64,000 bases of DNA from Microthyrium microscopicum (lineage: Eukaryota): positions 763,481-827,480 of the forward strand of contig MU004232.1 of NCBI GenBank assembly GCA_010405405.1, read 5' to 3'. A model generated the notes under the pieces. The model was not told the DNA's origin. It did not search any database and worked only from the letters and a program-made list of their open reading frames with translations. This document shows positions 35,641 through 56,465 of this stretch, piece after piece (within the stretch, counting starts at the first letter, position 1; the number at the start of each line of letters is the position of its first letter). The position numbers were made by a program, and so were the translations under genes.

Positions 35641-37917
35641 TCAAAGCAAAGAAACATAACGAACTGAAGCTCTTTCATTGTCCGTCCAATCCATAGAACC
35701 ATGCACGTAGCAGTCCCCAACCACTCTGTAGCGACCCAGGTTACCTCCATACAACGGTCGTAATACTAAGGGCATAGAGATGCCGAGTATCTTGAAGACC
35801 AAATCGTCTCTCTTAAGAGAATTTGGTCCCAGACCATACAAGTCTGGACCCGCTTGGAAGAAACGGCGACCTACTGTCGCCGCTCGAATTGCATGATCAA
35901 GTTGGTGTGCTGGATCTGCAGATGCATGCATCACTGGGGGTCCAGCCTCTCGGAACTTGTCGCTTGGAAATTTACGTCCACCTTTGAAGGCTCTTCGCAT
36001 GGACTCTTTGACCCACTGACGATATATGGGTCGATCATCGTCAGTAAGTCTTCTGTATCCTGACGAGTTAGAGAAATCGCAGATAGCCCCACCGCAAATC
36101 GTTTGCCAAAAGAGATTCGAAACCTTTTCACAGCCCTTTGACAGGCTTGGGTACGACTTCTTCTTCCACGGTGGTAGTGGCCGCTTTTCAAACCAAAATG
36201 GCTCTGAGGCGTGGGCTTTAGCTTGCCACAGGGCCAATCTGTCTAGTGCAAAGTCATAAGGTTTGTTGGGATGTAAAGACTCCGAAAAGTCCGATATCAC
36301 AGCCAGCTGCATGCCCCGGACCTGCAAAATAGATCCAAGTTCACGGAAGAGAGTACTCCTATCAACGGTGGACTTGAATAATTTCGCAGCTTGTAATCTT
36401 TCTCGCTCGTAGGATGCATCAAAGTATGACCAATCTGTAATCCAAGAAGGCAAGCTTAGATTCGCAGGATATCGTTTTCTGCTTCCCAAGATTGCGTCTA
36501 ATGAACCTGTAGCTTCGAACAATGCTACGGCAGTTTCTTGAAGAACCTGGTGTAGACTTTTGTCAGCATAAACAGGTCGCAGACTAGTTCTGTTGTTGCT
36601 AACATCCTCCAATCCTAACAGAGCATACACTTTATCTCGTTGATCAGAGGCTTCTCGAGATCGTGCTGCTTGTAGGATGTCTAGTAAAGTGGCATTTGCA
36701 GTTGGTTTGGCTGCTTTCTGCCATGCCAAGGTCAGTTCAGCTCTCAGTCCTGGAGATGAGCATAGAGGTCGATCATCCGAGATGCTGGCCATCTTCCTTA
36801 TCTGCAAAAACTCTAGAATAGTTCTCGTAAACGTCGAAAGGGCGTCAGACAAAGTTTCATCAACGTTCTTTAGGAAGCCGCTACAGCAACTGTGGGCATG
36901 TAGATCGTAGCGAATTGCTGCATCTACAAACATACACCATGGTGCCTGGATAGGGCCTAGCACGACAGTTGCCTTGGTAGCTAATATGGTTTCTTGTATC
37001 ACCCAAACTCTGTTCCACCATGAACGCTCCATAAGCAGTTTCAGAGCCAATAATAGCTTGTGCTGGTCTAGATATGCCGGCACATGTTTTGTCTTGTTCA
37101 AGTGAAAGGGTATGTCTGCTGCTAAGGCACGCAGAAAGTAGAATAAATTGAGAGTTGGTTTCGATGATGGTCCTGCTGGGCGCAAAGACGATATCTGATA
37201 AAGACTCTGGACGTCTTTGGATGCTCTCCTACTGGATGAAGGAACGGTATCGACGATATTCTGCGAAGTTTCAAGGTGGCTCGACCTGGTTCGGAATTGG
37301 CCAATAGTTGAGAACACTTTTCCTAGTAACGATACCCGTGATTTGTCTAGTTCTGCTTCCAGTTTCTCCTCCGATATCTCTGGACCCAGCCAGATGATTA
37401 CCTCCTCAGCGTAGCGGTATATCTTTCGCATGAGATTGACCTGATGATGCTTTTCCGCGTCATTATTCTGGTCGATACACAATGAGTCGACCCATAGAAC
37501 TCTCTCTGATGAACTATGGCGTAGAACTATCAATGCTTCCAGGAGATTATCGGTGACTTCGATTGGACTGTCGTTGATGAACACAGTTTTGCTGCGTACA
37601 AAGTCTTTGCCATGGGTTTTCTTGCTTGCGCGTTCCTTCCAGGCATGCGATAGAGCTTTGTATGAGACTTCTTCGTTGTGGTGTGGAGCATCAAGATCTC
37701 GTATTAATATTGCACCGCGTATGGCATCACCCGGCTCGCCTGGATGAATTTTGAACAGCCTGATCTGGGCTAGCGACCGAACTAGACGTGGATATATGAT
37801 TGCTCTATTTACTGTGGTTTTGTTAGAACAGATTTCTGTGCGTATGTACGAAAATGACTTACTACGACTAAGACTGCCACTGTTGCTGACGTTAATGTCG
37901 CCATTTTGGAGTACCAT
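35641..37917 (-). CDS. Heterokaryon-incompatibility (HET) domain protein, HET-6-like
   Basis: IRLFKIHPG, YKALSHAW, LWVDSLCIDQ, EKHHQVNLMRKIY..VIIWLG, WWNRVWVIQE, ASDQRDKVYALLGL, LPSWITDW and C-terminal YRVVGDCYVHG. Confidence 0.9.
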   Translation of the reverse strand: MVLQNGDINVSNSGSLSRSKSFSYIRTEICSNKTTVNRAIIYPRLVRSLAQIRLFKIHPGEPGDAIRGAILIRDLDAPHHNEEVSYKALSHAWKERASKKTHGKDFVRSKTVFINDSPIEVTDNLLEALIVLRHSSSERVLWVDSLCIDQNNDAEKHHQVNLMRKIYRYAEEVIIWLGPEISEEKLEAELDKSRVSLLGKVFSTIGQFRTRSSHLETSQNIVDTVPSSSRRASKDVQSLYQISSLRPAGPSSKPTLNLFYFLRALAADIPFHLNKTKHVPAYLDQHKLLLALKLLMERSWWNRVWVIQETILATKATVVLGPIQAPWCMFVDAAIRYDLHAHSCCSGFLKNVDETLSDALSTFTRTILEFLQIRKMASISDDRPLCSSPGLRAELTLAWQKAAKPTANATLLDILQAARSREASDQRDKVYALLGLEDVSNNRTSLRPVYADKSLHQVLQETAVALFEATGSLDAILGSRKRYPANLSLPSWITDWSYFDASYERERLQAAKLFKSTVDRSTLFRELGSILQVRGMQLAVISDFSESLHPNKPYDFALDRLALWQAKAHASEPFWFEKRPLPPWKKKSYPSLSKGCEKVSNLFWQTICGGAICDFSNSSGYRRLTDDDRPIYRQWVKESMRRAFKGGRKFPSDKFREAGPPVMHASADPAHQLDHAIRAATVGRRFFQAGPDLYGLGPNSLKRDDLVFKILGISMPLVLRPLYGGNLGRYRVVGDCYVHGSMDWTDNERASVRYVSLL

Positions 37918-39022
37918 TCCTCAGATCAGCCTTGCCAGCCTTGCCAACCTTGTAGGTCGTTATTGGAGCTTGACTACGCGGTATACCATATCTTGGTCAT
38001 ATAGCAGTAAGTTGTAGAATGCCTAGGAATGGGGCGCATAACCCACCATGAAATATGGACAAAGGATTATGAATCAAGTACAATATCTTGTATGTATATC
38101 TCAAGGAGTCAAGGTACAATGAGAAGGAGGATGGCTAACGATCGAACCAATCACCTTCGCATGAAGTCGCTCGAGAACTTCCACCCTATTTATAGTAGGC
38201 TGTACGTTGTACCGTACCGGCCTCCAAAAGCAACTCAGATCCATCACAGCTCATTCAGAAGACGTTGGATTGGCTTGCGTGTCAACGAGGCTTCAATGCC
38301 AAGCGCTTCGCCTCACTGATGAAAAAGCCAAGCCTTCGGATTCAAGCTTTCGCTCTTCAATAGCATAGGCTGAACTTAACGAGCCCATCGCTAGCAAAAT
38401 TCCCGTGAACTGATCCAAATCGGTCCAATTCGCCCCGGATCGGGGGAAAGCCCATGTCCACTCGTCGAGCCTAGGTAGAAACAATGCCATCCGAGCAATC
38501 GTCAGGCCTAGTAACGTGATGGCTGCAAATCTTTGCTTAGACGGTCTGTGTGTAGGTTTTTGGTTGAACAGCACGAACAACAATGTTACCAGTGGATCAT
38601 AGCTCTTAGTTGGCCGACTGAGTAAGGTGCGGCCAATGAGCCTGGTTTTCACGAACTGAACTTGAAATTAGCAGGCTGGCAAATATATGTTTTTTAGACA
38701 GACTTGTAACTCCTTTGCTGAAAGTCATCCTGCGAAATCCACCCAAGCTTTCTCTGTTGTATACACAGGATATCAACGCTAAACGCGCAGATTGGTTGAC
38801 AAAAGAGTGAATTCATTAGGAAATGTCTTACATGCCACAACAGCAAAGCATCTTACAGCCGTTGGTATCGGCTACAAACCAAACCAGTCTGCGTCTTAGC
38901 CCACCAGGTATCAAGACACCAATACTTATACAACAGGCCATTCGGCCTTCCAGACATTATCGTTACTCAAAGGTACACACTCAATACCGCACCTAGCCCG
39001 ACTTCCCGCCACTCTCGTGTGG

Positions 39023-40401
39023 TCACGAAGGTCCGACAGCCGGGACATTCTTTGACGGCATACTAGCAGATGGAACACTCGTAGATGCCGCTGCATTTGT
39101 AGACGCAATCGCACCAGGCTCAGCGGACAGAAGCTGCTCCTCAGCAGCCCTCCGTTTTGCAAACATACTTTTGAAAGTGCCAAGCCAGCGAGCCAGATCA
39201 TCCTCATCTCTAGCACAGAAGCGCCAGCCGCGCTCTTCGGTGATGATCTGCATGCAGAATTGGCGTTTGGGATTTCGGGATGGAGAGTCGATTTCGACAG
39301 CGTTGATTATTGATGGGAAGGAGAGGATTAAGAGGGGAGAATACTCCTACAATGACTTGTTAGTTTATAGAGTGGGAAAAAGTGCTGAAGGTATAAATAC
39401 CTGCTCGTTGGGATAAATAGCTAGGCCTTTCGGTCGTAATACAGCCCATACAGGCTTCCACTTTTTGACACCTCCTTTGCGTTTGATCAAATAAATCTTT
39501 CCGGAGCGGAGAATGCGTTCTTGGTCCATTTCTGTCATACTAGCCGAGCGTAGTGGACCGAGAGCCTTAGGTGCGGAATCGTTGTTTGTAGGAGGGACGG
39601 AGAGTGATATTGAGGAGCCGGGGAAGTTGGCTGCGCCTATTGAAGATATGCTACTAAATGATGCTACCGATGTACCATATGGACCTGAGTTTTGGTGTGC
39701 GTTGCTCGTCTTTCTGCTGCCTGGTACTGATATTGCTTTAGACGATGTAGGTTGAGGAACAATAATGTCTTCCGATGCGTCTTCCTCTTCACTAGTACCT
39801 AGACCGCTCTCCCACTCATCTATCCGTGCCGATACACGCAGCTGATGCACCCATTCATCGGCTTCTTGTTCAGACCTTGCATCAAAGTGGAAGTTGCGAG
39901 GCGGTGTGAAGACGGTAAAAAGGCCAGGTCGTGGTCGTTTCGATTTCCGCCTGCGCGCAACAGCAGTGATCTCGGTAAGCGATATGCTATGTCGGAGCGC
40001 AGTATGTTCCTTGTCGGCGTAAAGGGATAGGCAAAGAGGCCGCAGAACGATAAAGGTGGTCTTGTACTTCTGTAGAGCTGGTTAATGGGCGCTACTCAGT
40101 TGACGGGATCAATGTCTACTTTTGTCTTGCGCCCCTTCTTGAGCAGTTCGCCGGCTCTTATCTCTCTATCGAACTCAAAACACCCCTTTTCGTTGACGGG
40201 CGAGAAGGTGGCCGCATCAATATGCGCACCACGCGAATCGCCAGGCGGCGACGAAGCTATTACGGACGCCAGCTTGACTTTCTTTGGCGATGTAGTCTGC
40301 TGGGAGGTTGCTATGGACAAGTTCTGAGCGTTCGGAAGGTTTGAGAGGGGTGAAACGGCGGAATGGGAAGTGGTAGCGTTTTGAGAGGATTGGGGGAGCA
40401 T
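39023..40401 (-). CDS. OPY1: Tandem PH-domain protein, Opy1-like
   Basis: FEFDREIRAGELLKKGRKTK|intron, then the first PH domain ending in a W-containing helix. Second PH domain: RSGKIYLIKRKGGVKKWKPVWAVLR..FCARDEDDLARWLG. Confidence 0.72.
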
Positions 40402-41250
40402 GATGGGCGCGGTATGAAACGTGAGCGGTTGAGAGATTTGGTTGAGTGGATGACGTCTATCCAGTCGTCGCAACAGAGGCGCCAATGTTGAGGCAAAGCA
40501 AAGCTGAGCTGGTTGTATGAGGAAGATCAAGACATGTCAACAAAGAAGTAGGAGACATTGACATTGACATGTTTACTCTGAAGACAGAGGCAGGAAGGGA
40601 GGAGAGGTTGAGAATTAAAGAAGGAAAGAGTGTCTGTTGGTCGCTCTTTCCTTGGTGAGCCAGCCGCACCTGCCTCCAGCTGCAATTCGAGTTGACATTT
40701 TATCTGCAGTCAGTTGTACAGTGGCAGAAAACGGGGCTAAATCGAGGTCGGGTATAATGAGAATTGCCTTGCAGGGATGGGCTAATCCGAGTGGCAAGCA
40801 CCACACGGAGGCTCCTGCAACTGACAGGGATCAGAGTTCTGCAGTTCTGAGCACGGCCCGAGATTAGATCCGCGCGGCTGTATGCCATAGCCGCCACCAA
40901 TCGCGCCTCCGTTTCAGCTTCTTTATTTTTTAAGCATTCATGTTTAACCGCAAAACTTCATCGAGATTTCGATGGTAGACAAGATTGTATGGCTTACGTA
41001 TGATGAACTGATCTTTTCACTCCAAGAAGCTACAGTGCGGCGGGACCTTAAGATCCGGCATGAGGCCCTAGCCGATGAATCACTGTGAGCTCATGCCTGT
41101 AAAAGGTACAACCTTGTGCCCAAACTCCGAAAATATCTTGTCCATCAGAAAAATCATATCCCAATCACTGCCGATTATAAATACCACCAATCCCCATAAA
41201 TCCCTTTAAACCCATCCCTTACTGTTGCAAACTACTTCCAATCGCCCGCC

Positions 41251-44200
41251 ATGCCAGTGGTATCCGCCCAAAAGCTCATTGCGCTCCAGCGTTCTCCTGA
41301 GCGCATAAGAAACATCTGCATTCTCGCCCACGTAGACCATGGCAAAACATCACTCTCTGATGCCCTCCTGGCCACAAATGGAATTATATCGCCCAAACTT
41401 GCCGGTAAAATCCGATATCTGGACTCACGGCCGGATGAACAGTTGAGGGGAATTACTATGGAGTCCAGTGCAATATCTTTATACTTTTCCATGATGCGAC
41501 GAAAGGCGGCAGAAAATGGGGCAGCAGCTGGTGAGGTAGCGCCCCAAATGGAAGAATATCTAATCAATTTGATTGATTCGCCTGGTCATATCGATTTTCA
41601 GTCAGAAGTCTCCACTGCGTCACGGCTATGCGATGGCGCTGTTGTTCTTATTGATGCAGTTGAGGGCGTGTGCAGTCAGACAGTCACGGTCTTACGGCAA
41701 ACTTGGGTTGAGAAACTAAAACCTATTCTCGTCATAAATAAGATGGACCGGCTGATTACCGAGCTGGAACTGACGCCTGCTGAAGCATACATTCATCTCA
41801 GCAAACTTCTCGAAAACGTCAATGTTGTCATGGGCAGTTTCTTTCAGGGCGAACGCATGGAGGAAGATCTTAGATGGCGAGAAAGACTGGAGGAACGCGC
41901 AAATGCTGCTGCAGCCAAGGCACAAGAAAAAGAATCACTGAACATTAGCGATACAGCCTCTGTGACGACAGATGGCCAAGATTACGAAGAGAAAGATGAT
42001 GAGGACATTTACTTTGCGCCCGAGAAGAACAATGTCGTTTTCAGCAGCGCTATTGATGGCTGGGCATTCACGGTCAAGCAATTTGCTGGAATATACGAGA
42101 AAAAGCTTGGAATCAAAAGATCTGTGCTCGAAAAAGTTCTTTGGGGTGACTTTTATCTGGATCCAAAGACAAAACGGATTCTCGGTTCGAAACATTTGAA
42201 AGGTCGCCATCTAAAGCCTATTATTGTTCAGTTGGTCTTAGACAACGTCTGGGCTGTCTATCAAGCAACTACTGGTGGGCCAAATCGCAAAGGCGATGAA
42301 GCGCTTCTCACCAAAATCCTAACATCACTCAACATTTCGATACCAACACACATTCTCAAATCTCGGAATGCTCAAAATATTCTTACTACACTCTTCGCTA
42401 AATGGCTGCCTTTGAGCACGGCAGTCTTGGTTTCTGTCATTGAGCAACTCCCATCACCTCCAACAGCTCAAGCAAAGAGAATGCCAGCTTTACTCGACTC
42501 TTCTCCTGGAGCAACAGACATTTCTTCGGAGATCCGAACAGCCACATGCGACTTTACACAGGCCGACGACCAGCCGGTGCTGGCTTTTGTCAGTAAAATG
42601 GTAGCTGTCAAAGAAAGCGAACTTCCTCGCAACAAACGGCCGGCCGGTCGCACTCTCACTGCAGAAGAAGCCCGAGAATTAGCAAGAAAGAAAAGAGCTG
42701 AGATAGCACAAGCTCAATCAACAGACGGAGCAGAGCCGGACTTGTCTAACCTCACTTCTGCTCTGGGTGCCACAGAATTAGACGACACTACAAGCAAGCC
42801 TGAAACGCAGGAGAACGAGGATCCTGAGCATCTCATCGGTTTCGCTAGACTGTACTCCGGCACATTGAAAGTCGGCGCTGAGATATATGTCATTCCTCCC
42901 AAATATTCAGCATCACATCCCGATAAGCCTGCCGCAATTGCCGTCAAGGTCGAGGGCCTATATCTCCTCATGGGCCGAGCGTTAGAAGCTTTAGACTCAG
43001 TACCAGCTGGGTCAATTTTCGGGATCTCTGGCCTAGAAAATGTCCTGCTAAAATCGGGCACTCTCAGCAGCTCACCAAGAGGAGCACCCAATTTAGCTGG
43101 CATCGCAAGTACTCAGGTCTCCCCAATTGTGCGCGTAGCTCTTGAGCCGGAACATCCTGCAGATCTGGACAAAATGATTGCGGGCCTCAAACTACTTGAG
43201 CGTTCAGATCCGTGTGCTACCTATGAGCAACTGGAGAGCGGAGAACATATCCTTGCTACAGCGGGAGAATTACATCTGGAGAGATGTCTCAAGGATCTTC
43301 GAGAGCGCTTTGCGAGATGCGAAATTACCTCATCTGAACCTATTGTTCCGTTTCGAGAGGGTATTATCAATGCCCCATCAGTCTCTGGTGAAATGGCGAT
43401 TGGTCCTCGAGGAACGGCTGAAGTCGATATCTCCAAAGGCGTAATCAATATCCGACTACGCGTCCGCCCTCTGCCGACAGAAGTCATGGAATTTCTCATC
43501 AGCCATACTTCTTGCATGAAACGCGTAGTCGCTGAACAACGAGGCCATGAGGGCCACGTCGAAGACTCCGACTCCGACTCACCCGATGTAGTAGATGTAG
43601 CTGGCGAAAAAGAAACCGGCACTGAAATGTCCACCGCCGAATTCGAGAAAGTTCTCCGCGAAACATTCGCCAGCCTTAAGGGTGACAAAGAACACTGGGC
43701 CAGCATCGTCGACAAAATCATCGCTTTTGGCCCACGAGGCGTCGGCCCAAACCTTTTTCTAGACACCACCGGCCAACTCGGCAAACCCATCTTCTCCAAC
43801 AACAACCCAACTGCAGTCTCGACCGTAGCAATTTCCGATAAAATTCGCTACGCATTCCAGCTCGCCACCTCCCAAGGGCCTCTCTGCCACGAACCAACAC
43901 AAGGTCTCGCCGTTTCCATCGAATCCATCACGACTTCAGCGACCGAGCCAAATGACACCAATAACATGACACGCCTGACATCCGAAATCATAAAATCCGT
44001 GCGCCAGTCAATCCACACCGCCATGCTAGAATTCTCCCCTCGTCTACACCTCGCGACCTACTCCTGCGAAATCTCCGCACCCACCGAATCTCTCGGCCGC
44101 GTCTATCCAGTTCTAACGCGCCGCCACGCAACCATCCTCTCCGAAACACTCCACGAAGCCTCCAACGTCTATACCATAACATCTCTCCTACCTCTTCACG

Positions 44201-44460
44201 AATCTTTTGGATTTAGCGATGAGATCCGCAAGAGAACGAGTGGTGGCGCGACGGCTCAAATGGTGTTCCATGGCTTTGAGATGTTGGATGAGGATCCGTT
44301 TTGGGTGCCGGCGACGGAGGAGGAGAAGGAGGATTTAGGAGATACGGCTGATCGGGAGAATAGGGCGAAGGCATTGGTTGATGGTATTAGGGGACGTAAA
44401 GGCCTTTTGGTGCTTGGGAAGGGGTTGGATGGGGAGAAGGGGAAGAATTTGAAACGATAG
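41251..44460 (+). CDS. RIA1: Elongation factor-like GTPase 1 (60S maturation)
   Basis: RNICILAHVDHGKTSLSD, YLDSRPDEQLRGITMESSAISL, LIDSPGHIDF, NKMD, GELHLERCLKDL and EIRKRTSG. EFL1-type C-terminus DEDPFWVPATEEE. Confidence 0.95.
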   Translation: MPVVSAQKLIALQRSPERIRNICILAHVDHGKTSLSDALLATNGIISPKLAGKIRYLDSRPDEQLRGITMESSAISLYFSMMRRKAAENGAAAGEVAPQMEEYLINLIDSPGHIDFQSEVSTASRLCDGAVVLIDAVEGVCSQTVTVLRQTWVEKLKPILVINKMDRLITELELTPAEAYIHLSKLLENVNVVMGSFFQGERMEEDLRWRERLEERANAAAAKAQEKESLNISDTASVTTDGQDYEEKDDEDIYFAPEKNNVVFSSAIDGWAFTVKQFAGIYEKKLGIKRSVLEKVLWGDFYLDPKTKRILGSKHLKGRHLKPIIVQLVLDNVWAVYQATTGGPNRKGDEALLTKILTSLNISIPTHILKSRNAQNILTTLFAKWLPLSTAVLVSVIEQLPSPPTAQAKRMPALLDSSPGATDISSEIRTATCDFTQADDQPVLAFVSKMVAVKESELPRNKRPAGRTLTAEEARELARKKRAEIAQAQSTDGAEPDLSNLTSALGATELDDTTSKPETQENEDPEHLIGFARLYSGTLKVGAEIYVIPPKYSASHPDKPAAIAVKVEGLYLLMGRALEALDSVPAGSIFGISGLENVLLKSGTLSSSPRGAPNLAGIASTQVSPIVRVALEPEHPADLDKMIAGLKLLERSDPCATYEQLESGEHILATAGELHLERCLKDLRERFARCEITSSEPIVPFREGIINAPSVSGEMAIGPRGTAEVDISKGVINIRLRVRPLPTEVMEFLISHTSCMKRVVAEQRGHEGHVEDSDSDSPDVVDVAGEKETGTEMSTAEFEKVLRETFASLKGDKEHWASIVDKIIAFGPRGVGPNLFLDTTGQLGKPIFSNNNPTAVSTVAISDKIRYAFQLATSQGPLCHEPTQGLAVSIESITTSATEPNDTNNMTRLTSEIIKSVRQSIHTAMLEFSPRLHLATYSCEISAPTESLGRVYPVLTRRHATILSETLHEASNVYTITSLLPLHESFGFSDEIRKRTSGGATAQMVFHGFEMLDEDPFWVPATEEEKEDLGDTADRENRAKALVDGIRGRKGLLVLGKGLDGEKGKNLKR

Positions 44461-44539
44461 AGAGTGATGATATATGAGAAGAAAAAATCCATGATGCATG
44501 AAATTATGTATGTCGTATATACTAGACGAATAGACGAGT

Positions 44540-45435
44540 TTAGAATTTTTCTAAAGCGGGCCTCATGTCCAACTCATGAGTCCACAAACAGGCTTCTTGC
44601 TCGTGTAGGAATAGATATGTCTTGCCTACAGCTTCCGCACTCATCCTTTTACCTGCCTTAGTATCCTCGCTGTCCTCATCACGAATGCCACCATTCGCAA
44701 TGGCATGCACAACATGGACACCTTTCTCGCTCATCTCGCGGGCTAGTGATTGCGCCAACTGGCGTACACTTGCACGACCAGCACCATACGCTCCATATCC
44801 GATGTTGCAGCGCAACGCGCCAAGTGTGCCAGTGAAAATAATGGTCTGGAACACGTCAATACTCGTAGGAACGTGAACAGAACGGGACGGAACATACCCC
44901 TTTCTTCTCCGCTCCATCAGCAAGCCTAGCCTCCCCATGATCCTCAAACAACCGCTTCAAACTCTCCTGCGCAAACGTAAACGCACCACCAACATACGTC
45001 GTCAACGAGTCCGTAAAGTCCTGTCACAATCAGCCAAAGCTCACCCATACCTTATATACTCACCTCATGCGTTTCCTCCATAAATGGCTTCTTATGTGAA
45101 TGTTTCACACTAAAAATCGCCATTCTCAGCTTCAATCCTTTGAAGGATTCATGGGCCTTGATATCCTTAAACGTTTGCGAAAGTTTTTGTGGTGTGGTGT
45201 CTGTTGGAAAAGCTTCGAAGATTGCATCAGGGACATCATTACGTAGATTCTTTGCTAGATCTTGAAGGGGGTCGGGGCGACGGGCTAGGAGTGCTACTGC
45301 CAAGTTCCCTTTCGATGCGAGGATTCGTGCTATACCTGCGCCCTGGGGATGTTAGATGAGTGTTGGTGTGGTTGGGGGTTCAATTACTGTTGTTGGACCT
45401 GCGCCGATTAAAATTGCTAGGCCTGCTGGTGCCAT
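44540..45435 (-). CDS. Short-chain dehydrogenase/reductase, multi-exon
   Basis: MAPAGLAILIGAGPTT|GAGIARILA, IIFTGTLGALR, YGAGRASVRQLAQSLAREM and WTHELDMRP. Confidence 0.8.
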
Positions 45436-46001
45436 TTTTGGAGTTTTGATCTTTAGAGGAGTAATATTAGAATGTGGCTAAACTTTTGATGCCTTCAGGA
45501 ATAGGAGATTCAGAGCTGAACTTAGAAGTCTCCAGTTCTAAGATGGAGAGAGGTCATCAGCGCCGGATATAGGGTTTAATTCTCTTGATGTCATGATGCA
45601 TTTGATCATCATACTGTGCTTTCTTAGTTCATGACTCGGTGTTTCTTCTGTCTCACGTTTTTATATGTTTACAGTGAACACTGTTCTGGTCCGAATAGTT
45701 TTCTGACTTCTCTAGCTGTGGAATAGAAATAAGGCAGTCATCAATGTGACCAGTCCACCAGCTAGAATTTCTATGATCACGACTCATGCTACTGCTTTCA
45801 AAGGTTTATTCACATTCAGGTATTTTGGATCTCTTTGGATCACTATGACACTAGGGAGCCCAAATCATGTATAGCTGACTTTGTTTGGACAGTTTTAAGG
45901 CTGGGCATACCCAATATATTATCACACTTGTAAAGAGATGGATCACGCCAAGAACCATAATGCTAGCTGACTCTATTTCAAATTCTAAAGTCCAGGCATC
46001 T

Positions 46002-46139
46002 TCAGAAGCCAAACGCCCATGAAAAGACATGGAGCATGCTGATAATTGCAAAAACAGATACAGTGAGAGGAGCTGCAGAGGTTGTTACCAGTGATTCCTC
46101 CCTATTGTTCGCTACTATAGCGATGATGGCGCCTCCCAT
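46002..46139 (-). CDS. Hydrophobic microprotein, array unit 4 (45 aa)
   Basis: MGGAIIAIVANNREESLVTTSAAPLTVSVFAIISMLHVFSWAFGF*. Confidence 0.55.
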   Translation of the reverse strand: MGGAIIAIVANNREESLVTTSAAPLTVSVFAIISMLHVFSWAFGF

Positions 46140-46171
46140 GACCAACGACGAGTTTACTTCAATTTGGAAGT

Positions 46172-46315
46172 CTACGAAAGCCACGCGCAGAGATGGACCA
46201 GGCCGAGGACTGTGATGATAGGTATAGCGAGGGGAGCGGTAGTATGTACTGCTAGCGATTCCTTGCTATTGTTCGCTAATACAGCCAAGACAGCCATGAC
46301 GGCTGCGGCTCCCAT
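46172..46315 (-). CDS. Hydrophobic microprotein, array unit 3 (47 aa)
   Basis: MGAAAVMAVLAVLANNSKESLAVHTTAPLAIPIITVLGLVHLCAWLS*. Confidence 0.55.
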   Translation of the reverse strand: MGAAAVMAVLAVLANNSKESLAVHTTAPLAIPIITVLGLVHLCAWLS

Positions 46316-46347
46316 GAGAGCGTTACGATGGCTCAGATGTAGGAAGC

Positions 46348-46509
46348 CTAGAAAGCCCACAGAAAGAGATGGACCAGGCTGAGAAGTGCGATGATAGGTA
46401 TAGTGGAAGGGATGTCAGTGGTGGTTGCCAGTGAAACCTCACGACCGTAAGATAATGCGTGTCCTCCAGACAAGGCGGCGATGATGCCACCGGCGAAGAT
46501 GACAGCCAC
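46348..46509 (-). CDS. Hydrophobic microprotein, array unit 2 (about 53 aa; no ATG, candidate AAA-GTG start)
   Basis: VAVIFAGGIIAALSGGHALSYGREVSLATTTDIPSTIPIIALLSLVHLFLWAF*; 21 of the last 28 residues are identical to unit 1. Confidence 0.5.
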   Translation of the reverse strand: MAVIFAGGIIAALSGGHALSYGREVSLATTTDIPSTIPIIALLSLVHLFLWAF

Positions 46510-46529
46510 TTTTGCTACGGTGTGGGCTT

Positions 46530-46703
46530 TCAGAAAAGCCACAAGAACAGATGGATTAGGCCGAGAAGTGTGATAATAGAGATTGTCAGTGGAACGTCCG
46601 TAGTCGTTGCCAGTGAAGTGTGACGACCAGCAAATGAGGCTCCTGATCCGGCAATTGCTGCTACTGCTCCTCCTGATCCTGCTGCGGTCGCGGCTCCCGG
46701 CAT
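46530..46703 (-). CDS. Hydrophobic microprotein, array unit 1 (57 aa)
   Basis: MPGAATAAGSGGAVAAIAGSGASFAGRHTSLATTTDVPLTISIITLLGLIHLFLWLF*; paralogous to the three downstream units, with many synonymous differences. Confidence 0.6.
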   Translation of the reverse strand: MPGAATAAGSGGAVAAIAGSGASFAGRHTSLATTTDVPLTISIITLLGLIHLFLWLF

Positions 46704-47854
46704 ATAATAGAAATGATTGCTGTAGTGAGGAAGTCTAGAGGATTTCTTAGTAGAATAATTAAGAGGATCAGAGTCTCGGGATAGGGACGTTTTCCAACGT
46801 ACTGTGATTGTCTCGATTGAAGTTTGATGTAAGTAACTTTTCGCACGAAGGTAGTATGTGTTGAAAACTGCGGTTTCGCATGACGGTAAACGAGTCACAA
46901 GATGCTACTTATAGAACAGACTTTGATATCCGCCTGAGGACCATTATCCTGTGATCATCATGAACGGCGGGACCGAACACATTCCACTGCATTGGCAGAG
47001 GTAATGGAAGCTCTTGGTACTGGACACACACTGGTAGCTACCTTTTTAGAACAGATGCTGTACCAGATTTGGCCCATCTTAGTCCAACGAAAGTATTCAA
47101 GGCAGCTTGTCAAGCTCCTGTCGGACTTGGTGTTCTCATAATACTTGTGTAAATAGTAACACGCTGACAGGCAGTTGTGCCAGCGAGATGTGAAGTGGGA
47201 ATGTTGGACACGCATTATTAAGACGAGACGCAGTTAGCTTTTATCTGTTCATACGTTCGAAAGATAAACAGATGTTACCAGCAAGGCTTCTCTTTTTCAT
47301 CGTGGAGAGCAATTTTTGGTTTTTGCAAGTCATCACGTCTTTTGGACTCCGCTGTCCACTCCAAGAGTATCTCCTCAATCTAGAAGTTTTTGCAATTCGA
47401 AAGGATACGGTCGAAATTGTTCCCGAAATCTTCCACAGCATCGGCGACATAGTTGGAAGCTTATATGTCTGAGGTCTCTGCTGAATTTGGTTGATAAACT
47501 CTTCTTCCAGCTTCATACAAGACCCTCGGCGAATCACGAAGGGAGATTGGATAAACCTACTGCAACCCTGAATGAGTGCTCAGTAAAAGCATCGGGCCAA
47601 TCGAGTAGGACGAGATGATCATATTCGACTACTGAGAAGTTAGCTGTAGCTCGTAGACGTGTGGTTTAATTAACTCCCGGGATTCCCAGATGAAGTCCAG
47701 GGCACTCTGAGTAAAAGCCAACTCGGAACACGGCAGTCAACAACAGTATATATCTGGTCAATTAACGAGTCTATCTCAACATCACCTCTCGGCTAGGAGA
47801 ACATTTGACTGCCTCTTGTCTACCTCATCAAGATCGCAGCTGTAAACCATCACG

Positions 47855-49181
47855 ATGGGTTCAATCGACCACGCAAACTTCGAGAAATTCGAAAACTTCG
47901 ATATCGATGAGAGCGCAGCAGTCAATCTCAATGACCCAGCTCAAATCTACGCCGAATACGACTATCTGCGCTCCAAATGTCCCGTCATCCATACTACAAA
48001 GTATAACGGCTACTGGTTACTCACTCGGTATCTTACCACCCACTATCCCTCAATCTCCTTTCACCACTGACAATTCTAGCCATGCCGACATCAAAGCCGC
48101 AGCCGGCGACTCAGCAACCTACATATCCTCTGTCAAAGCCGTCGTCCCCTCCGATCCCCGCGGAATCCGCCGCCCACCCCTAAACTACGACGCACCAAAC
48201 CACACGCCCTACCGCACAGCTCTCGACCGCACCCTGCACCCGCGCCGCCTAGCTCGGCTCGCCAGCATACTAGAGACGCATGCGCAGCAGGAACTTGCGC
48301 CGCTCTTGGAGAAAGGCGAAGGTGATATGTGTACGCACTTTGGTGCTCTATACAGCGCTTGGGTGGAGACGAGCTGGTTGAATCTGGATGAGGATATGGC
48401 GCCCAAGTTGGCGACAACTGCAGCGGCATGGGTGAATGCGTGGAGGAATCAAGATGCGGATGAGGTTAAGAGGCATAGTGATGTGTTGTATGATATTGCA
48501 AGGGGGGTGTTGAGGGAGAGGAGGGAGAGGCCGAGGGATCCATTGGAGGATCCGGCTAGTAGTCTGTTGTTGGAGAAGGGACCTGATGGAGAGTTTTTGA
48601 AGGAGGAGCATTTGGTGTAAGTCCTGTCATTCCCCACCGACAAAGAGCGCATCTGCTAACGATCAACATATAGAGGAGGAATCCGTCAGTGTTTAGTAGT
48701 CGCCATGATAGCACCCAGCATCCTCATGGGGGGCATCTGCAAACATCTCAGTGAAGACAAGGACCTGCAAAACAAACTCCGTTCTGAACCAGAGCTGATT
48801 CCCGCTGCGATCGAAGAGTTCATCCGCCTATACTCACCATATCGCGGGTTTTCACGCACCACTTCCAAAGACGTGGACCTCCACGGCGAAACTATCAGCC
48901 CCGGAAATCCCATTACAATGACTTACGCGGCTGCCAACCGCGACCCTGAGGTCTTCCCTGAGCCTGCGAAATTCATCCTCAACAGACCCAACATCACCGC
49001 CCATCTAGGCTTTGGACGTGGCAGACATCGGTGTGTTGGCATGCCGCTTGCGCGTCTCGCGATGCAAATTGCGCTAAAGGTCTTGCTCCAGAGCACGTCT
49101 GATTTTGAGATTAATGGAGAGTTGGAGTATGCTCGGATGCCAGAAATTGGGATAATCTCCTGTCCAGTGAAGTTTTCGTAG
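47855..49181 (+). CDS. Soluble, bacterial-type cytochrome P450 (about 405 aa, 3 exons)
   Basis: Introns 48028-48079 and 48617-48673. EEFIR (ExxR), AANRDPEVF and heme motif HLGFGRGRHRCVG. Bacterial-style LRSKCPV..GYWLLTRHADI N-terminus with no membrane anchor. Confidence 0.92.
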
Positions 49182-49609
49182 AACGGAAGAACGTGCTCCG
49201 CATCAGAATCGAAGAGTTGATTGATTTTCCAGCTATCTCGCGCCTTTGAAGATGTTATATCTGTGACTATGAACACTGAACACTGTGAAATGTTGGGCGG
49301 CACATCCGCCGTGCGACGACTGGTATCAGGCTGTGTCACATCTTGCTGTCTTCACTGAGATGTAACATTGACACGTACTCTTCATGATTCCGGGCCTGTA
49401 TTCGTGGATTTCACGTTGTTGTTGATGCATGCCAACGTCGTCGCGTGGAACATAAATGGCAGAAATGTTGATTCCAAGCTATTCCATTTCGGGTTAGCGC
49501 GATATCTCTACTCTATCTCCATCAACCTGATAACCAACTTTCTTGATACTTCAACATTCTTTCCCACAGAAATGTAATAGCGAGCTTAGCTAACTCAGAT
49601 CTCGTAACA

Positions 49610-50542
49610 ATGGTCAATGACAAGGATCAAACGAGTTCTTCCACCACAGACACCCACTTCCTCGACTCCTCCCATGGCAAACTAGAACTCAGAACTGCCC
49701 TGCCAGCTACAGGGCAACGTCATGAGGAACTACCAGTTCTCTTCATTCACGGAACCCAATGCGCAGCATCATGTTACTCAACGTTTCTCTCGCCTTTCGC
49801 TAAACAAGGCTACCCAGCATACGCGCTCTCCCTCCGGAACCATGGCAAGTCTGACAAAATAAGCTGGTTCAGCTCCATGTTTCTCACAACTATCGACTCT
49901 TTTTGCGACGACGTCGAAGTCGCAATCGAATACATTAAATCACAACACAATGGTCAAGCGCCTGTACTAGTCGCCCACTCCTTTGGAGGCGGCATAATCC
50001 AATACATGCTGTCAACACGGCAGGTAAGAGCACCTGCTCTCGTCCTACTCGCCTCATTGCCCCTGACAGGTGGGGCCTGGGAATTAATGGCAAACTGGAC
50101 AGCTGCCGAAGCACCGAACGGATATGACTGGCCCTGGAGCCGACGCTACCAGCTGAGTACTGTATCGCAAGTCAAAGCGGCCTTGTTCTCAGACGAATGT
50201 CCCGATAACGTGATTGAAGAGTGGTTGGGAGAGGATCGGACACCGTGTGAGAGTATGAGAGCTACGCTTGCTGTGTTTTACCAAATTGGTTCTGCAGAGA
50301 AGATCTTGGGCCAACTGGATGGGCTGCCAGGGACGGGACAAAAGATTCTGTGCGTTGGTGGTGGACAAGATAAGTTGATTACGAAAGATGTTGTTGCTGC
50401 CAATGTGAAGGATTATCGAGCAGTTGATGGCCGAGATGGTGTCGTGGAGGAGAAGGTGGTGGAGAAAAGCGGACATCATCTGATGCGTGATGTAGCGCAT
50501 GAAGAGTGTGCGGATGTGATTTTGAAATGGATCCAGATTTGA
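49610..50542 (+). CDS. Alpha/beta hydrolase (esterase-like)
   Basis: LFIHG, SLRNHGKS, nucleophile elbow AHSFGG, catalytic D (QDKLI) and H (SGHHLM). Confidence 0.88.
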   Translation: MVNDKDQTSSSTTDTHFLDSSHGKLELRTALPATGQRHEELPVLFIHGTQCAASCYSTFLSPFAKQGYPAYALSLRNHGKSDKISWFSSMFLTTIDSFCDDVEVAIEYIKSQHNGQAPVLVAHSFGGGIIQYMLSTRQVRAPALVLLASLPLTGGAWELMANWTAAEAPNGYDWPWSRRYQLSTVSQVKAALFSDECPDNVIEEWLGEDRTPCESMRATLAVFYQIGSAEKILGQLDGLPGTGQKILCVGGGQDKLITKDVVAANVKDYRAVDGRDGVVEEKVVEKSGHHLMRDVAHEECADVILKWIQI

Positions 50543-50998
50543 GTCGAGGCGACAAGATATGTTTTATACCCCATAGCCGCGAGAGAAAAGAATTAGCAAA
50601 GCGATCTTTTTCGAAACGTTTTACTCCAGTTGTTTTACATGGCTAGAAACCATAAATTTGGGATGCGTGGATAGTACTAATCCACTGAAAGGAGAAAAGG
50701 CTGTAAGTAGTGGATGGAAGACTATAAGGCTGATGAGCATGCTAATGTCTTTAAGGAAAGATCTAATTGTGTCAGACACCAATAGCTTGGTAATGCACGC
50801 TGCGGCGATGCTGGACTGGAGCATACTCAAGGTAAACTCTCCTAGCTGCATATGGATGCAGTATGTAGTTCTAGGCACCAGGTTCAACTGCGCCTCAATG
50901 CTACCAAAGCACCAATATATCAGCGAGCAGGTTCCCACCTTTCATTCTTATTCTTTAATGAATCTAAAACTCAACTCAACCCTCTGATTTCACTGGCA

Positions 50999-52420
50999 AT
51001 GGCTTCAGACCCAGCAGAAAACTCCAGCCCCAAACCACCTTCTCTACTCCCAGAGGACGAAGTCTCAAATCCAGACAGCGACGATGCATACCACGGATCA
51101 CCAAAGCTGCCAGGTGGCACCGTATGGACCCAGTTCCCTCCCAATGAATCCTTTCTCTCCGACCCAGAATGGTTCGATGGCATTGGAATCGACATGATCA
51201 AACGCCGCGGCATCTTCTCCTAACGTTCGAAATCAGAGCAGGTTGTTATGGCGCTTACGCTATACGACGAGATTCCAAGACGTGGGCTCCAGATCATGTT
51301 TGCTGCTGCTGTCAAGGGGAAAGCTTGGGTTATAGAGGCGCTGTTGGATATGGGCGTGACACCTCAGCCGATGCCCTCGACAGAAGATGATCAGACAGCG
51401 GTTTCTTTGCACGCCGCAGTGTTCCATGGGCGTTTGGACTGTGAGAAGCTGTTGATCGAGCAAGGAGGCGTGGATGTGAATACGAGATGTGATGTGAGTG
51501 AGATACCTTTGATGCGAGCGGCCTGGGGTCAACATCCCGAGATTGTCAGATGGTACTTGAGAATCGAGCGGATCCAATGCTGAAGCAGACGGAGGGTGAA
51601 GGGACTAATGCATTGGAGTTTGCAATTAGTGGTGGGAATATAGAGTGTGAGCAGCTGCTCTTGAAAACACAACGGCGAGGCGTAACGGGGCAGGACGGGG
51701 CTGATGTCCTTCTATCGGGGGAAGAAGCGATCACGTTGAATGCTTTGAAGGCAGCGGCAAAGTCCAGGAACGTCGAAATGCTACGACTCATACTAGAACA
51801 AGGTGGGTATCTCACGGATGACGACGCAGTCTGAAAAGGGGAGAGATTGGATGCAGAGCAGAGATATATGATTCAAAGTACTCTTCGCTACGCAGATGAC
51901 GCGCCAGCTCTTCGGATACTTTTGAGTTATATTGCTCAACCAGATGATGCTGGATTCTTCACAGTTCTCGACTTAATACAAGGGATAAAAGAACGAATCA
52001 TGGATATGCTCTTCACAGTCCTCAAAAAACCCGAACTCTTCAAGCTTATGTGCAGTGTTTCATTCAGCTCACCAGATCTGACTACAATGCAATACGAGAA
52101 TCGCAATTTTTCGAAGACCGAATACTTAAACCACCTAGTGCACAACGCAGCTCAAGAAGGTGCTTTGGAATGTGTCATGTTCATTCTCACCATACCCGGC
52201 GTATAAATCAATGTTCCTGGCCCGAGAAAGGTCGGTGCATTCTATAGAGCTGCTGAGCTCTCAAAATCAGTACCTCCGGTGGAAACTAGAAGTTTTAGCG
52301 TGGAACTGGACTTGGATGAAAGTGATGTCGACTGGCTTGCTTTTATGCAGATCCGCAAGTCTGCTTCAGAGTTGAAGCAAGATGATAGAGGAGAAAGGGG
52401 ATTGAAGGAACCAATCTGAA
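50999..52420 (+). pseudogene. Ankyrin-repeat protein pseudogene
   Basis: Ankyrin repeats SLHAAVFHGRLDCEKLLIE, PLMRAAWGQHPEIVR, ALEFAISGGNIEC and ALKAAAKSRNVEMLRLILE. In-frame stops at about 51221, 51832 and 52204 and a frameshift near 51555. Confidence 0.75.
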
Positions 52421-52497
52421 GCTCGACCTCGTGATTGGATTCGATACATTTCATTGTCATGTTATATACGATGCGAAACAAAATACTTGGTCACTGG

Positions 52498-53476
52498 TTA
52501 TTGTGCAAGGTAACCTCCTTCTACCGGCAGAATTGCACCAGTGATCCAGCTTGCATCGTCACTTGCAAGAAATACTGCTGGCCCTTCAAAATCTCCTGGT
52601 TTTCCGAGCCCTTTCAGAGGATGCACAGCATCAATTTGAGCCTTTACATCAGCGTTCGCAGCCATTGACGATATCATAGGCGTGTCTGTGACTGCACAAC
52701 ATTCAGTTGAAATCTCTTTACAATATGATAGAAGTTGAGACTTACAACCTGGCGCGATTGCATTGACATGTATACCAAGTGGCGCATAATCCAATGCAGC
52801 TGTACGTGTCATATTCACCACCGAACCTTTTGCACTCGAATAGCAAATGGTACCGCTTTTGCCAACCAAACCGAGAACTGAAGCGATGTTGATTATCCAT
52901 CCTCTGTCACCATTTGCGTAAGGTTCTTGCTTCATCATTTGCATGCCGGCATACTTGCAGCCAAGGAAGACACCAAAAGAATTGACGCGTATTGTTGAAT
53001 GAAAAGTATCTGCTGATGTTTCGTAGATAGGGGTAGGATTTTCAGCCTCAGCTGCAATACCGGCGTTATTTACCATACTGGATAGGTTGATTAGCCATAA
53101 GTACTAATACTTTGATATTCGGATCTTACATGTCGACTTTTCCAAACTCCTGCGTTGATAAATCAATCAATGTCTGAACACTTTCTTCACTTCCAACATC
53201 GGTCTCAACAAATTTGCTCCTGCCTCCATTTTGAGATATCAAGGTGTGAGTCGAAACCTCGTCCTCTATAGCGTCGGGTCGCAAGTCTGAGCAAACCACT
53301 TTGGCTCCTTCTGAAGCATATCTCAAAGCAATAGCTCGACCTAACCCACTGGATGCTCCAGTAATGATAGCGACTCGATCTTGAAGCCGACGAGAAGAAT
53401 AGAAACGATTGTTTGAATGTGTGCTATATCCGATAATCCGATGCAAGCCCTGTCTGAATGATCCCGCCATTGGCAT
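52498..53476 (-). CDS. Classical short-chain dehydrogenase/reductase, 3 exons
   Basis: TGASSGLG, VNNAGI, YSSAK (YxxxK), VNAIAPG and ASWITGAILPVEGG. Confidence 0.9.
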
Positions 53477-53619
53477 GTAAGAACATGACTTGCTTCCAGT
53501 GAGATGACCTCTAGGAATCTGTAGACTTTGTTAGGAATTGACGGTCTCCTCAAAATCTCATAACTATTTAGATTGGGTTAGCAGCGGGTTGCGATCCATG
53601 GCTAAAAGACTAAATTCTG

Positions 53620-53656
53620 CGGGTCATGATCCGCAAATATTGCGGCTGCTTATCCG
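53620..53656. promoter_or_regulatory. Two CGG-N8-CCG putative Zn2Cys6 sites in the divergent SDR/SMP-30 promoter
   Basis: CGGgtcatgatCCG (53620-53633) and CGGctgcttatCCG (53643-53656); near-match CGGgttgcgatCCA at 53585. Confidence 0.6.
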
Positions 53657-53853
53657 GAACCAGAAGCTAAGAAGATCGACTCCTTACGCTTGTGCACATG
53701 GCACTCCACGATGAGCAACCCCAGACTCCACTTCAATAATAACAAGACTTTAGACAATGTGAAATGGCGGGGTGCATAAAGGTGGCTTTGGATTATGCTT
53801 ATTGAGTCGTGCTCCAGAGTTAGCCTCGTCTACAGATTTATCAGTTTTTAACC

Positions 53854-54789
53854 ATGACGCAAAATTCCACCATAACAACACTGACTCCTGAGCCATGGGC
53901 GAAAGGCCTCTATTTTGGGGAAAGTCCTCGCTGGCACGCCGCCAGTAACACTCTTTATGTTTCCGACATGATTGGACGCAAAATCTACACCATCGACAAT
54001 GCGGGCGAGACTTCTGTGCTGCTTGAGGAGGAGAACCAGCCCAATGGCATGGCATTTATGGATAACAATACACTCATCACCTCCTCCATGTTCGATGCCA
54101 AACTCTACCGCTATCAGCTTGACACGAAGAAAACCGAGTTATATGCCGATCTTTCCGCAGTGATGACTGGATATTGCGGCGACATGGTTATCGACCATAA
54201 AGGACGTGTCTTCATCGATGACACTGGAGCTCGTGTCTTGCACGGAGAGACTCCAAGGCCTGGCCGATTACTCATGGTCGAGCCAGACACCAAAAAAGTC
54301 AGCAGTGTGGCTGAAAACATAGTCTTCCCCAATGGCATTGGCATCGACTCTACTGGCAAAAACCTATACCTCGCGGCCACTTTTACTTATCATCTTTACA
54401 AATTTTCCCTAGATGCCGATACAGGGGCATTGAACAACCAGGAGACTATCTGGGACGCACATGAGCTCGCAACTGTTGCGAACAAAGAACACACTCGGTT
54501 TTGTGGTATTGATGGAATTTGCATTGACGCGCAAGATTGCATGTGGTTGAGCATGTTGGGATACCAGATGTTCATTCGAAGAGACAAGAATGGAGCGATA
54601 ACACATCAGATTCACGTGGACGGAGATGCAACAGCATGTGCGCTTGGTGGGTCAGACGGTAAGACACTTTTCCTGGTAGTCAATAAGGTGCCGAAAGGAG
54701 AGGATCTATTCGATGCTATGGTGGGAAAGCGAACGAAATGTAGTATCATGACCGTCCGAGTTGATGTTGGAGCTGCCACAGGAGTTTAG
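53854..54789 (+). CDS. SMP-30/gluconolactonase/LRE family beta-propeller (lactonase-like), intronless
   Basis: FGESPRWH, PNGMAF, FPNGIGI, DGICIDAQ and TACALGGSDGKTLF. Confidence 0.88.
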   Translation: MTQNSTITTLTPEPWAKGLYFGESPRWHAASNTLYVSDMIGRKIYTIDNAGETSVLLEEENQPNGMAFMDNNTLITSSMFDAKLYRYQLDTKKTELYADLSAVMTGYCGDMVIDHKGRVFIDDTGARVLHGETPRPGRLLMVEPDTKKVSSVAENIVFPNGIGIDSTGKNLYLAATFTYHLYKFSLDADTGALNNQETIWDAHELATVANKEHTRFCGIDGICIDAQDCMWLSMLGYQMFIRRDKNGAITHQIHVDGDATACALGGSDGKTLFLVVNKVPKGEDLFDAMVGKRTKCSIMTVRVDVGAATGV

Positions 54790-55221
54790 AGCGATGACAG
54801 CTAGGCATTTTGCACATAACTGGAATAGCAGAAACCTATACCGTTCCATATCAATTCAGACATGTGAAGGGCTCTTTCTCTGAGCAAATCGTGATTGTCA
54901 CAAGTTAGGGATACGAGCTTTCTTTACAACAGCACCCGATTTTATGTTTTATGATGGACATAGTGAATCCGCGTCGGTTGCTGGAGGTTCGCAATCACTT
55001 TAATCATACACTCTTCTACCAGAAGGCAGGCCTAAACGCCTCCGTCTATGGTTCTTGGTCTTGCCGGATAATTTTACTATACGATATGAGCGCACTGACT
55101 TAGCGTGCGATCTTGTCCGGAAATGAATGTCGAGTGCCAGAGAAGGTCTTCACAAGATATCAACAAACGTTTGCATGAAAGTTCATGAAAGAATCATATT
55201 TAATTTTCGGCGCGTAAAGAA

Positions 55222-56232: not shown

Positions 56233-56465
56233 AATGACGAAGAATTGGGTGCGTCAGGTATGTTTTTTTTGTTGAGAATGTTCAAGTGATTGAAATGCTG
56301 GTCAGCTTGGAAATGGCAATACTAAACTGCCCCTTTTCGTCTCCAGCTTCATTCTTATTATAGCCATGATTTCCGTACCGACAAAAAACAAATAGCTCTA
56401 CTTAGTGTGCATCTTCCGCCAGTAGGACGGTCACTGACGGTGGTCGGAACTTGCGGATGGTATGG

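Follow-up and report, generated by a model that had tools for sequence, protein, structure and literature searches.

A tandem array of small minus-strand open reading frames in a filamentous ascomycete, possibly a family of membrane-micropeptide genes, and the antisense RNA that overlaps it

The DNA analysed here (a stretch of 64,000 nucleotides from Microthyrium microscopicum, hereafter the window) contains an intergenic array of head-to-tail, homologous units, each with a small open reading frame on the minus strand. Our preferred reading, to which we assign a probability of roughly 40%, is that the array represents an orphan family of tandemly duplicated membrane-micropeptide genes that is undergoing birth and death and is overlapped by an antisense long non-coding RNA (lncRNA). 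Observed directly were the repeat, its open frames, a number of weak signs of coding, the fact that the region is transcribed and the lack of any splice joint inside the array. An earlier reading of the same DNA, made from its letters only (the sequence-only reading), had described the array as an operon-like cassette of hydrophobic microproteins under purifying selection. Its observations turned out to be largely right; its interpretation is possible but unproven, and the sole evidence of expression points to the opposite strand.

Results

Organization of the array

The list of ORFs contained the four minus-strand units, of 57, 53, 47 and 45 codons, exactly where the sequence-only reading had placed them (Table 1). 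Each unit ended in its own stop codon (TGA, TAG, TAG and TGA, respectively), and from the stop of one unit to the start of the following one there were 20, 32 and 32 nt, as that reading had also reported. A repeat finder detected a core of 97 nt in 4 copies, spaced by 164, 176 and 182 nt and sharing 63-73% identity with the reference copy; the repeat is one of true DNA homology. Tandem Repeats Finder missed the array because the copies have diverged. A motif found in the spacers after the stops of units 2 and 3 was also present directly upstream of unit 1, and the duplicated unit therefore includes the stop and the spacer. The stops of three of the four units fall in one aligned column, that of unit 4 coming two codons later than those of units 1-3.

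Three units have an ATG of their own, at or near homologous positions. That of unit 1, which is the first minus-strand AUG downstream of the end of the RNA contig at 46789 (see below), is in a weak context, with T at -3. The context is also weak for unit 3, in which there is an additional in-frame ATG at 46297, and it is best among the four for unit 4 (G at -3 and G at +4). Unit 2, which as a protein is closest to unit 1 (57% identity), has no ATG, a point that the sequence-only reading did not mention. Its frame is open upstream to 46734, with no ATG in that stretch either, and it shows ATC where units 3 and 4 have a homologous ATG.

We also found a fifth copy that had previously been missed. 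It was detected with an E value of 0.036 by tblastn and as a match of 70-76% over 33 nt by the repeat finder (repeat family D2). This copy matches the C-terminal core only, and a frame comparable to those of the other units is not preserved in it. A possible sixth relic, further downstream (45815-45904), aligned poorly and is doubtful. Read in the minus-strand direction, the array thus shows a gradient from intact to decayed copies.

Table 1. Position of the array, of the RNA contig that covers it and of the genes nearby (coordinates of the window)
Feature	Position	Strand	Remarks
SDR gene	44540-45435	-	ATG near 45435; flanks the array
RNA contig over the array	45654..46789	unstranded	1063 nt, depth 14.2
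Intron removed in the RNA contig	45820..45892	+	73 nt, GT..AG
Fifth copy, decayed relic	~45932..46045	-	found by tblastn, repeat finder and alignment
Unit 4	46002..46139	-	ATG start, 45 codons + TGA
Unit 3	46172..46315	-	ATG start, 47 codons + TAG
Unit 2	46348..46509	-	first codon GTG, 53 codons + TAG
Unit 1	46530..46703	-	ATG start, 57 codons + TGA
P450 gene	47766-49181	+	start approximate; flanks the array
Alpha/beta hydrolase	49547-50539		beyond the P450 gene

The attribution of this DNA to a fungus, already made in the sequence-only reading, was borne out. Because HET, Fungal_trans and BUD3 domains are encoded in the window, we assign it to a filamentous ascomycete; Dcc1 and EFL1 domains were also found. 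Beyond the P450 gene, in addition to the hydrolase, we found genes for an ankyrin protein, SDRs, an SGL-family protein, an amidohydrolase, a Zn-cluster-type transcription factor, an FMO-like protein and an alcohol dehydrogenase. A HET-domain gene is present about 8 kb from the array. No RiPP-type enzyme or core synthase was detected among the 34 ORFs of the window that were scanned (E values up to 1e-5). A transposon with terminal inverted repeats was considered and rejected: the only inverted pairs were of 15-24 nt with 74-87% complementarity, which is consistent with chance.

Evidence for coding in the minus-strand frame

Several independent signals, each weak on its own, were concordant and together provide modest evidence for coding. 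The frame of the peptides is the sole one of the six that has 0 stops in all four unit bodies. Such an outcome is not rare under neutrality, the probability that all four frames would have stayed open being about 0.08-0.15 if 15-20% change per lineage is assumed. When 30 aligned codons were compared, the minimum number of changes was 26 for the first, 12 for the second and 25 for the third codon position (chi-square P 0.055). Such sparing of position 2, which sets hydrophobicity, would fit selection for a hydrophobic product. The DNA alignment showed two indels in the ORF bodies, of 9 and 18 nt, and a spacer indel of 2 nt. Pairwise identity was 63-76% in the C-terminal core, versus 40-69% in the N-terminal part and 34-69% in the spacers.

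The proposal of purifying selection had been founded on units 1 and 2. We confirmed that these two units share 21 identical residues, of which 11 are specified by differing codons, this being measured over 30 aligned codons. The dN and dS values were 0.23 and 0.91, corresponding to a dN/dS of 0.25 (Fisher P 0.004, about 0.03 when corrected for six pairs). Transversions made up 8 of the 13 third-position differences, so transition bias does not explain this low ratio. Purifying selection is thus supported for this pair, and it is not for the five other pairs, for which dN/dS ranged from 0.38 to 0.98 (P 0.05-1). The pooled dN/dS was 0.67, and some other frames do as well. RIP was rejected as a source of the divergence, since the ratio of transitions to transversions was about 1-1.6 and the spectrum was not RIP-like.

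We also counted the ATG triplets in the region. Between 46789 and 46137, the minus strand contained 4 of them, as compared with 8.1 +/- 2.2 expected from dinucleotide shuffles (P 0.047). These were the starts of units 1, 3 and 4 and the in-frame Met of unit 3. The plus strand contained 18 in the same 653 nt. Across the window, 8% of the stretches of 650 nt had 4 ATG or fewer. Within the ORF bodies, the depletion of out-of-frame ATG was not significant (2 vs 3.97 expected, P 0.18). The synonymous-codon score, which was 0.085 bits/codon for the array vs 0.042 for the genes of the window and 0.003 for open stretches in a wrong frame, was uninformative because codon bias is weak in this genome. 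We consider, all these signals being weighed together, that the frame probably codes for protein now or did so until recently.

Predicted properties of the peptides

The predicted products are hydrophobic, with GRAVY values of 1.07-1.34 for all four. Their 15-residue hydropathy maximum (2.2-2.45) lies in the C-terminal part in 4 units out of 4, and the S-L, P, H and W columns described in the sequence-only reading are indeed present in this hydrophobic part of every unit. A linker rich in Ser and Thr, with one or two charges on each of its sides, closes with an invariant Pro, after which comes a hydrophobic stretch that contains a His and a Trp, both invariant. Sequence variation is spread across the peptide, with no hypervariable core between a constant leader and a constant follower, and KR dipeptides are absent from the units (0 found).

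AlphaFold2, run with the four-sequence alignment, predicted a helix from residue 4 to 31 (pLDDT about 50-60) and another one from 38 to 56 (pLDDT about 80), in a model of low confidence overall (mean pLDDT 63, pTM 0.33). The N-terminal hydrophobic segment of unit 4 comprises only about 10 residues; therefore, a single C-terminal membrane helix is the common denominator of the four products. With fewer than 100 aa and one hydrophobic helix of about 20 residues, they have the features of predicted single-pass membrane micropeptides.

Search for relatives

At E values up to 10, no Pfam family matched unit 1, unit 2 or unit 4. PF24838 (8xMP, octameric membrane protein family) was retrieved with unit 3 only, with an E value of 0.29 and 11.4 bits vs a gathering threshold of 30, and was discarded as being at chance level. 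A profile of the four units gave 0 matches at E values up to 0.001 among 1.84 billion representative proteins, and an alignment of the units gave none at E values up to 1 among proteins of 101-2000 aa. Similarly, a word-indexed search with unit 1 among proteins of 31-100 aa found no match, and the ESM Atlas yielded no usable one. In metagenomes, an alignment of units 1 and 2 gave 333 pattern matches, and in prokaryote genomes it gave 45; 0 of these were confirmed. We also searched metagenome contigs for synteny, using the intronless EFL1-like neighbour as bait; this led to 35 pattern matches, again with 0 confirmed. Thus, the orthologous arrays that the sequence-only reading had hoped to see by homology search were not found in the protein, metagenome and prokaryote-genome searches, all of them of low power, the profile being of 48 positions and microproteins being seldom annotated.

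Gene callers had been expected to miss the array, and this appears to be so: no called product matches these ORFs in a collection of 15 billion proteins, from which the three ATG-initiated ORFs and two plus-strand ORFs that we checked are absent. The EFL1-like neighbour protein is in this collection and is alone in its 90% cluster, so the collection contains no close sister proteome. In the open-access literature, including the available portion of a review on the 'hidden genome' (PMC11413187), we found no description of a fungal tandem microprotein array.

Transcription of the region

The RNA evidence came from one public run, in the form of assembled contigs that carry no indication of strand, ends or expression level and that were compared with positions 40000-52000. 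The run was treated as RNA because the introns of the neighbouring genes were skipped. It showed that the region is transcribed, as the sequence-only reading needed it to be: one RNA contig, in which 45654-45816 is joined to 45890-46789, extends across the array, with a depth of 14 vs about 140-180 for the neighbours. From 45890 to 46789, this contig is colinear with the DNA through all four units and has no joint within the array. Upstream of the array (46817-47217), the depth was 0.24.

Read on the plus strand, the intron removed from the contig has GT..AG borders, and a CTGAC branch site precedes its 3' AG by 13 nt. No canonical minus-strand reading could be found for it at any shift within the 3-nt ambiguity. 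In the neighbouring genes, introns appeared as CT..AC in minus-strand genes and as GT..AG in a plus-strand gene, so this notation tracks the strand. The intron is the sole strand marker in the contig and is antisense to the peptides. Because it is canonical on the plus strand only, there is certainly a spliced RNA from that strand, in antisense orientation relative to the peptides. The longest ORF in this RNA is of 59 aa; being spliced and devoid of a credible ORF, it has the features of an antisense or divergent lncRNA. The sequence-only reading had postulated one transcript over the four units; an unstranded contig spans all of them colinearly, and the only intron of that contig is on the opposite strand.

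The depth in the bin 45614-46014 was 10.2, i.e. 288/401 x 14.2, which is exactly the share of the bin that this contig covers, so no other (unspliced) contig covers the intron. Therefore, a minus-strand mRNA would have to end within about 110 nt past the stop of unit 4. In a second contig (record 2), the EFL1-like gene, on the plus strand, was joined to the SDR gene, on the minus strand. The contigs are unstranded and merge overlapping transcripts of opposite strands, and a minus-strand mRNA lying over the antisense RNA would thus be allowed. Counting against the peptide reading, the whole contig can be accounted for by a single RNA of the plus strand (45654 to 46789), with no need for a second transcript.

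Discussion

A possible history of the locus

The interpretation that we favour is that a lineage-specific small-ORF gene was expanded as a unit of about 175 bp was duplicated in tandem, and that each intact unit would give rise to a peptide of 45-57 aa. In this peptide, a short N-terminal helix rich in Gly and Ala would be connected, through a polar linker of Ser and Thr that leads to the conserved Pro, to a C-terminal transmembrane helix; the latter would comprise about 20 residues and have the conserved His and Trp close to its end. It could be a membrane micropeptide of the tail-anchor-like or of the hairpin type. Ordinary scanning would suffice for unit 1, which begins at the first AUG of the putative minus-strand RNA. 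Since there is no out-of-frame AUG from the end of the RNA contig to the start of unit 4, leaky scanning or reinitiation may give access to units 3 and 4. Units 1 and 2 would have been constrained for a long time, unit 2 having since lost its AUG; units 3 and 4 would be weakly constrained or not at all, and the fifth copy would be dead. The spliced plus-strand antisense lncRNA, which overlaps the locus, would be the RNA seen in the single data set.

We infer from the above that a minus-strand mRNA may be produced and translated and that its products may insert in membranes, where they could have a function. Our guess would be that of a small membrane regulator or of an oligomerising membrane peptide. 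The gradient from intact to decayed units and the absence of out-of-frame AUGs would fit with a translation that weakens with the distance from the cap. Polycistronic translation as such, including leaky scanning or reinitiation, is unproven. We find it unlikely that the locus makes a true minus-strand polycistronic mRNA (from about 46789 to about 45900), from which three or four paralogous transmembrane microproteins, forming a family with no known relatives, would be translated by leaky scanning past AUGs in a weak context and reinitiation over the spacers of 20-32 nt, the antisense lncRNA restraining the locus.

Other explanations

The main rival explanation is that the array is a diverged non-coding tandem repeat, contained in a spliced plus-strand lncRNA of low abundance that diverges from the SDR promoter region. 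No peptide would be made, and the open frames would be coding relics or a result of composition. This is a serious possibility, to which we would nevertheless give less than even odds. It readily accounts for the plus-strand GT..AG intron with its CTGAC branch site in the very contig that continues across the array, and for a spliced plus-strand RNA with 59 aa as its longest ORF and 18 ATG in 653 nt, as expected for a non-coding RNA. It also agrees with the lack of an ATG in unit 2, with the decay of the fifth copy, with most pairwise dN/dS values being near 0.7-1 and with the absence of homologues in our searches. However, it leaves unexplained that units 1 and 2 have a dN/dS of 0.25, that codon position 2 is spared, that a single frame is free of stops in all four units, that the indels are in frame and that ATG is depleted on the minus strand. 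Furthermore, the plus-strand RNA showed no conserved fold (consensus -4.66 kcal/mol, with a covariation term of -0.06), and 0 Rfam matches were found between 45000 and 48000 at E values up to 1. An array of snoRNAs or of other structured RNAs was rejected for these last two reasons.

The best-kept part of the units is a C-terminal hydrophobic tail that follows a Ser/Thr-rich stretch, and decay increases toward one end of the array. This could suggest that the units are pseudogene debris, derived from the duplicated last exon (a transmembrane tail or a GPI-signal-like end) of a larger, decayed gene for a membrane or cell-wall protein. We hold this to be distinctly improbable: no joint enters the array from upstream, where the depth falls to 0.24 (46817-47217), so that no upstream exon was found to be spliced to the units; no convincing minus-strand coding ORF is present upstream; and an ATG of its own is present in each of three units, at homologous or nearly homologous positions. 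A parent gene was not found among the 1.84 billion representatives or among longer proteins, in searches to which a profile of 48 positions lends little power. The idea that the units are ordinary exons of one spliced gene, with the stops lying in introns, had been named in the sequence-only reading as one that would overturn it. No joint was seen inside the array in the sample studied, the contig being colinear over 45890-46789, which contradicts this idea for the sampled condition. In addition, the only GT..AG interval that would skip the stop of unit 1 is of about 28 nt, which is below the length of fungal introns. As we found no point in its support, we give it hardly any credence. Finally, small peptide genes arranged in tandem beside genes for a P450, an alpha/beta hydrolase, SDRs, an FMO-like protein and a Zn-cluster-type transcription factor bring to mind RiPP-type precursors, which the P450, hydrolase and flavin monooxygenase encoded next to them would process. 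The hallmarks of the dikaritin/ustiloxin type are a signal peptide and repeated cores separated by Kex2 sites in one ORF, with a UstYa/DUF3328 neighbour; those that we checked for dikaritin, amatoxin and borosin systems also include a prolyl oligopeptidase and a fused methyltransferase. The units contain no signal peptide with Kex2-separated cores in one ORF; they each have their own stop and lack KR dipeptides. No UstYa/DUF3328 protein, prolyl oligopeptidase or fused methyltransferase was found among the 34 ORFs (E values up to 1e-5), variation is spread over the peptide rather than concentrated in a hypervariable core, and the peptides are transmembrane-like. A role as RiPP precursors is therefore very improbable.

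Significance

If the peptides are made, the array would be a rare fungal case of head-to-tail paralogous membrane microproteins, separated by spacers too short to accommodate separate promoters. It would then be a natural system for testing how leaky scanning and reinitiation operate in filamentous fungi, and also for following the birth, duplication and loss of orphan small genes. Should the minus-strand polycistron be real, the insect pri/tal and sarcolamban loci would have in this locus a fungal counterpart that encodes membrane peptides. If no peptide is made, the array is an ordinary diverged tandem repeat in an antisense lncRNA, and serves mainly as a warning that, when ORFs are very short, open frames and a single low pairwise dN/dS provide weak evidence. 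The array also illustrates a blind spot of gene callers, as its three ATG-initiated ORFs are missing from the collection of 15 billion proteins.

Comparison with known systems

In design, the array comes closest to pri/tal, to sarcolamban and to fungal polycistronic transcripts, and it is homologous to none of them. As described in the available part of PMC11475943, the pri locus of insects (also known as tarsal-less or mille-pattes) produces a polycistronic mRNA of 1.5 kb with four smORFs encoding peptides of 11-32 aa. Both loci have paralogous small ORFs in tandem with a common motif and are covered by an RNA of about 1-1.5 kb (for the array, the unstranded contig) that gene callers would take for non-coding. 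However, the pri peptides are soluble and unstructured and share LDPTGQY, the motif given in that source, whereas those of the array are of 45-57 aa, hydrophobic and transmembrane-like, and lack this motif. Furthermore, pri is found throughout arthropods and has been shown to be translated, while the array is in a fungus, has no known relatives and its translation is only predicted.

The same source, in its available part, describes sarcolamban as bicistronic, with redundant paralogous peptides (PMC11475943). Like sarcolamban, phospholamban and sarcolipin, the predicted products of the array are very small single-pass membrane peptides, and these known peptides are encoded by RNAs that were once called non-coding. 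There is no sequence relation between them according to Pfam, and the peptides of the array have, in addition, a Gly/Ala-rich N-terminal helix.

Among fungi, Iso-Seq analysis of Fusarium graminearum revealed 914 polycistronic transcripts from 321 loci (bioRxiv 10.1101/2021.11.08.467853). The accessible part of that report, in which agaricomycetes are named as well, indicates that the RNA of an ascomycete can carry at least two ORFs, as would be the case for the array. The Fusarium cases differ in being, for 98% of them, bicistronic read-through transcripts over annotated genes, identified at a threshold of 100 aa per ORF; unlike the array, they do not consist of paralogous microproteins in a row, and translation of the polycistrons is not claimed in that part of the report.

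In Neurospora, lineage-specific genes cluster with HET-domain genes, according to the available part of PMC10684091. The ORFs of the array differ from fungal orphan genes in being far below the lengths used for gene calling, in tandem and separated by tiny spacers. They resemble such genes in being short and without homologues and in their variable neighbourhood, which includes the HET-domain gene mentioned above.

Genomic context of the small-ORF array

Comparison of the plus-strand intron, which lies antisense to the predicted hydrophobic peptides, with the neighbouring repeat units showed that its branch-site region (45872-45886) closely repeats positions 45964-45978 (87% across 15 nt), which lie within the decayed fifth unit. 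Because of this resemblance, the intron may have been born inside old repeat sequence.

The genes surrounding the array are listed in the table. The EFL1/Ria1-like and SDR genes form a convergent pair and both are spanned by a single RNA contig (record 2); therefore, their 3' ends overlap or abut. The run beyond the array comprises genes for a P450, an alpha/beta hydrolase, an ankyrin protein, an SDR, an SMP-30/gluconolactonase-like protein, an amidohydrolase_2 protein, an FMO-like protein and a Zn-ADH, and resembles a cluster of catabolic or tailoring genes; no core synthase for it was found inside the 64-kb window. An RNA contig begins at 47689, preceded by adapter letters and slightly upstream of the P450 ORF, and this start may be a fragment end near the P450 transcription start.

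Annotated features of the window
Feature	Position	Strand
Three long ORF pieces with AAA_11/AAA_12 helicase domains	428-6336	-
HET-domain (heterokaryon incompatibility) gene	35644-37920	-
EFL1/Ria1-like GTPase gene, intronless, 1069 codons	41251-44460	+
SDR gene, three introns	44540-45435	-
Enzyme gene run with fungal-specific transcription factor	47766-63609	

The helicase ORF pieces probably belong to a single large Upf1/Sen1-like helicase gene that introns or frame breaks interrupt. A short periodic repeat coding Leu/Ile/Thr (22873-22956, minus strand), antisense to a long ORF at 20620-23079, gave several overlapping tblastn matches. Roughly 8 kb separate the HET-domain gene from the array; one study reports that lineage-specific genes of Neurospora cluster with HET genes (PMC10684091).
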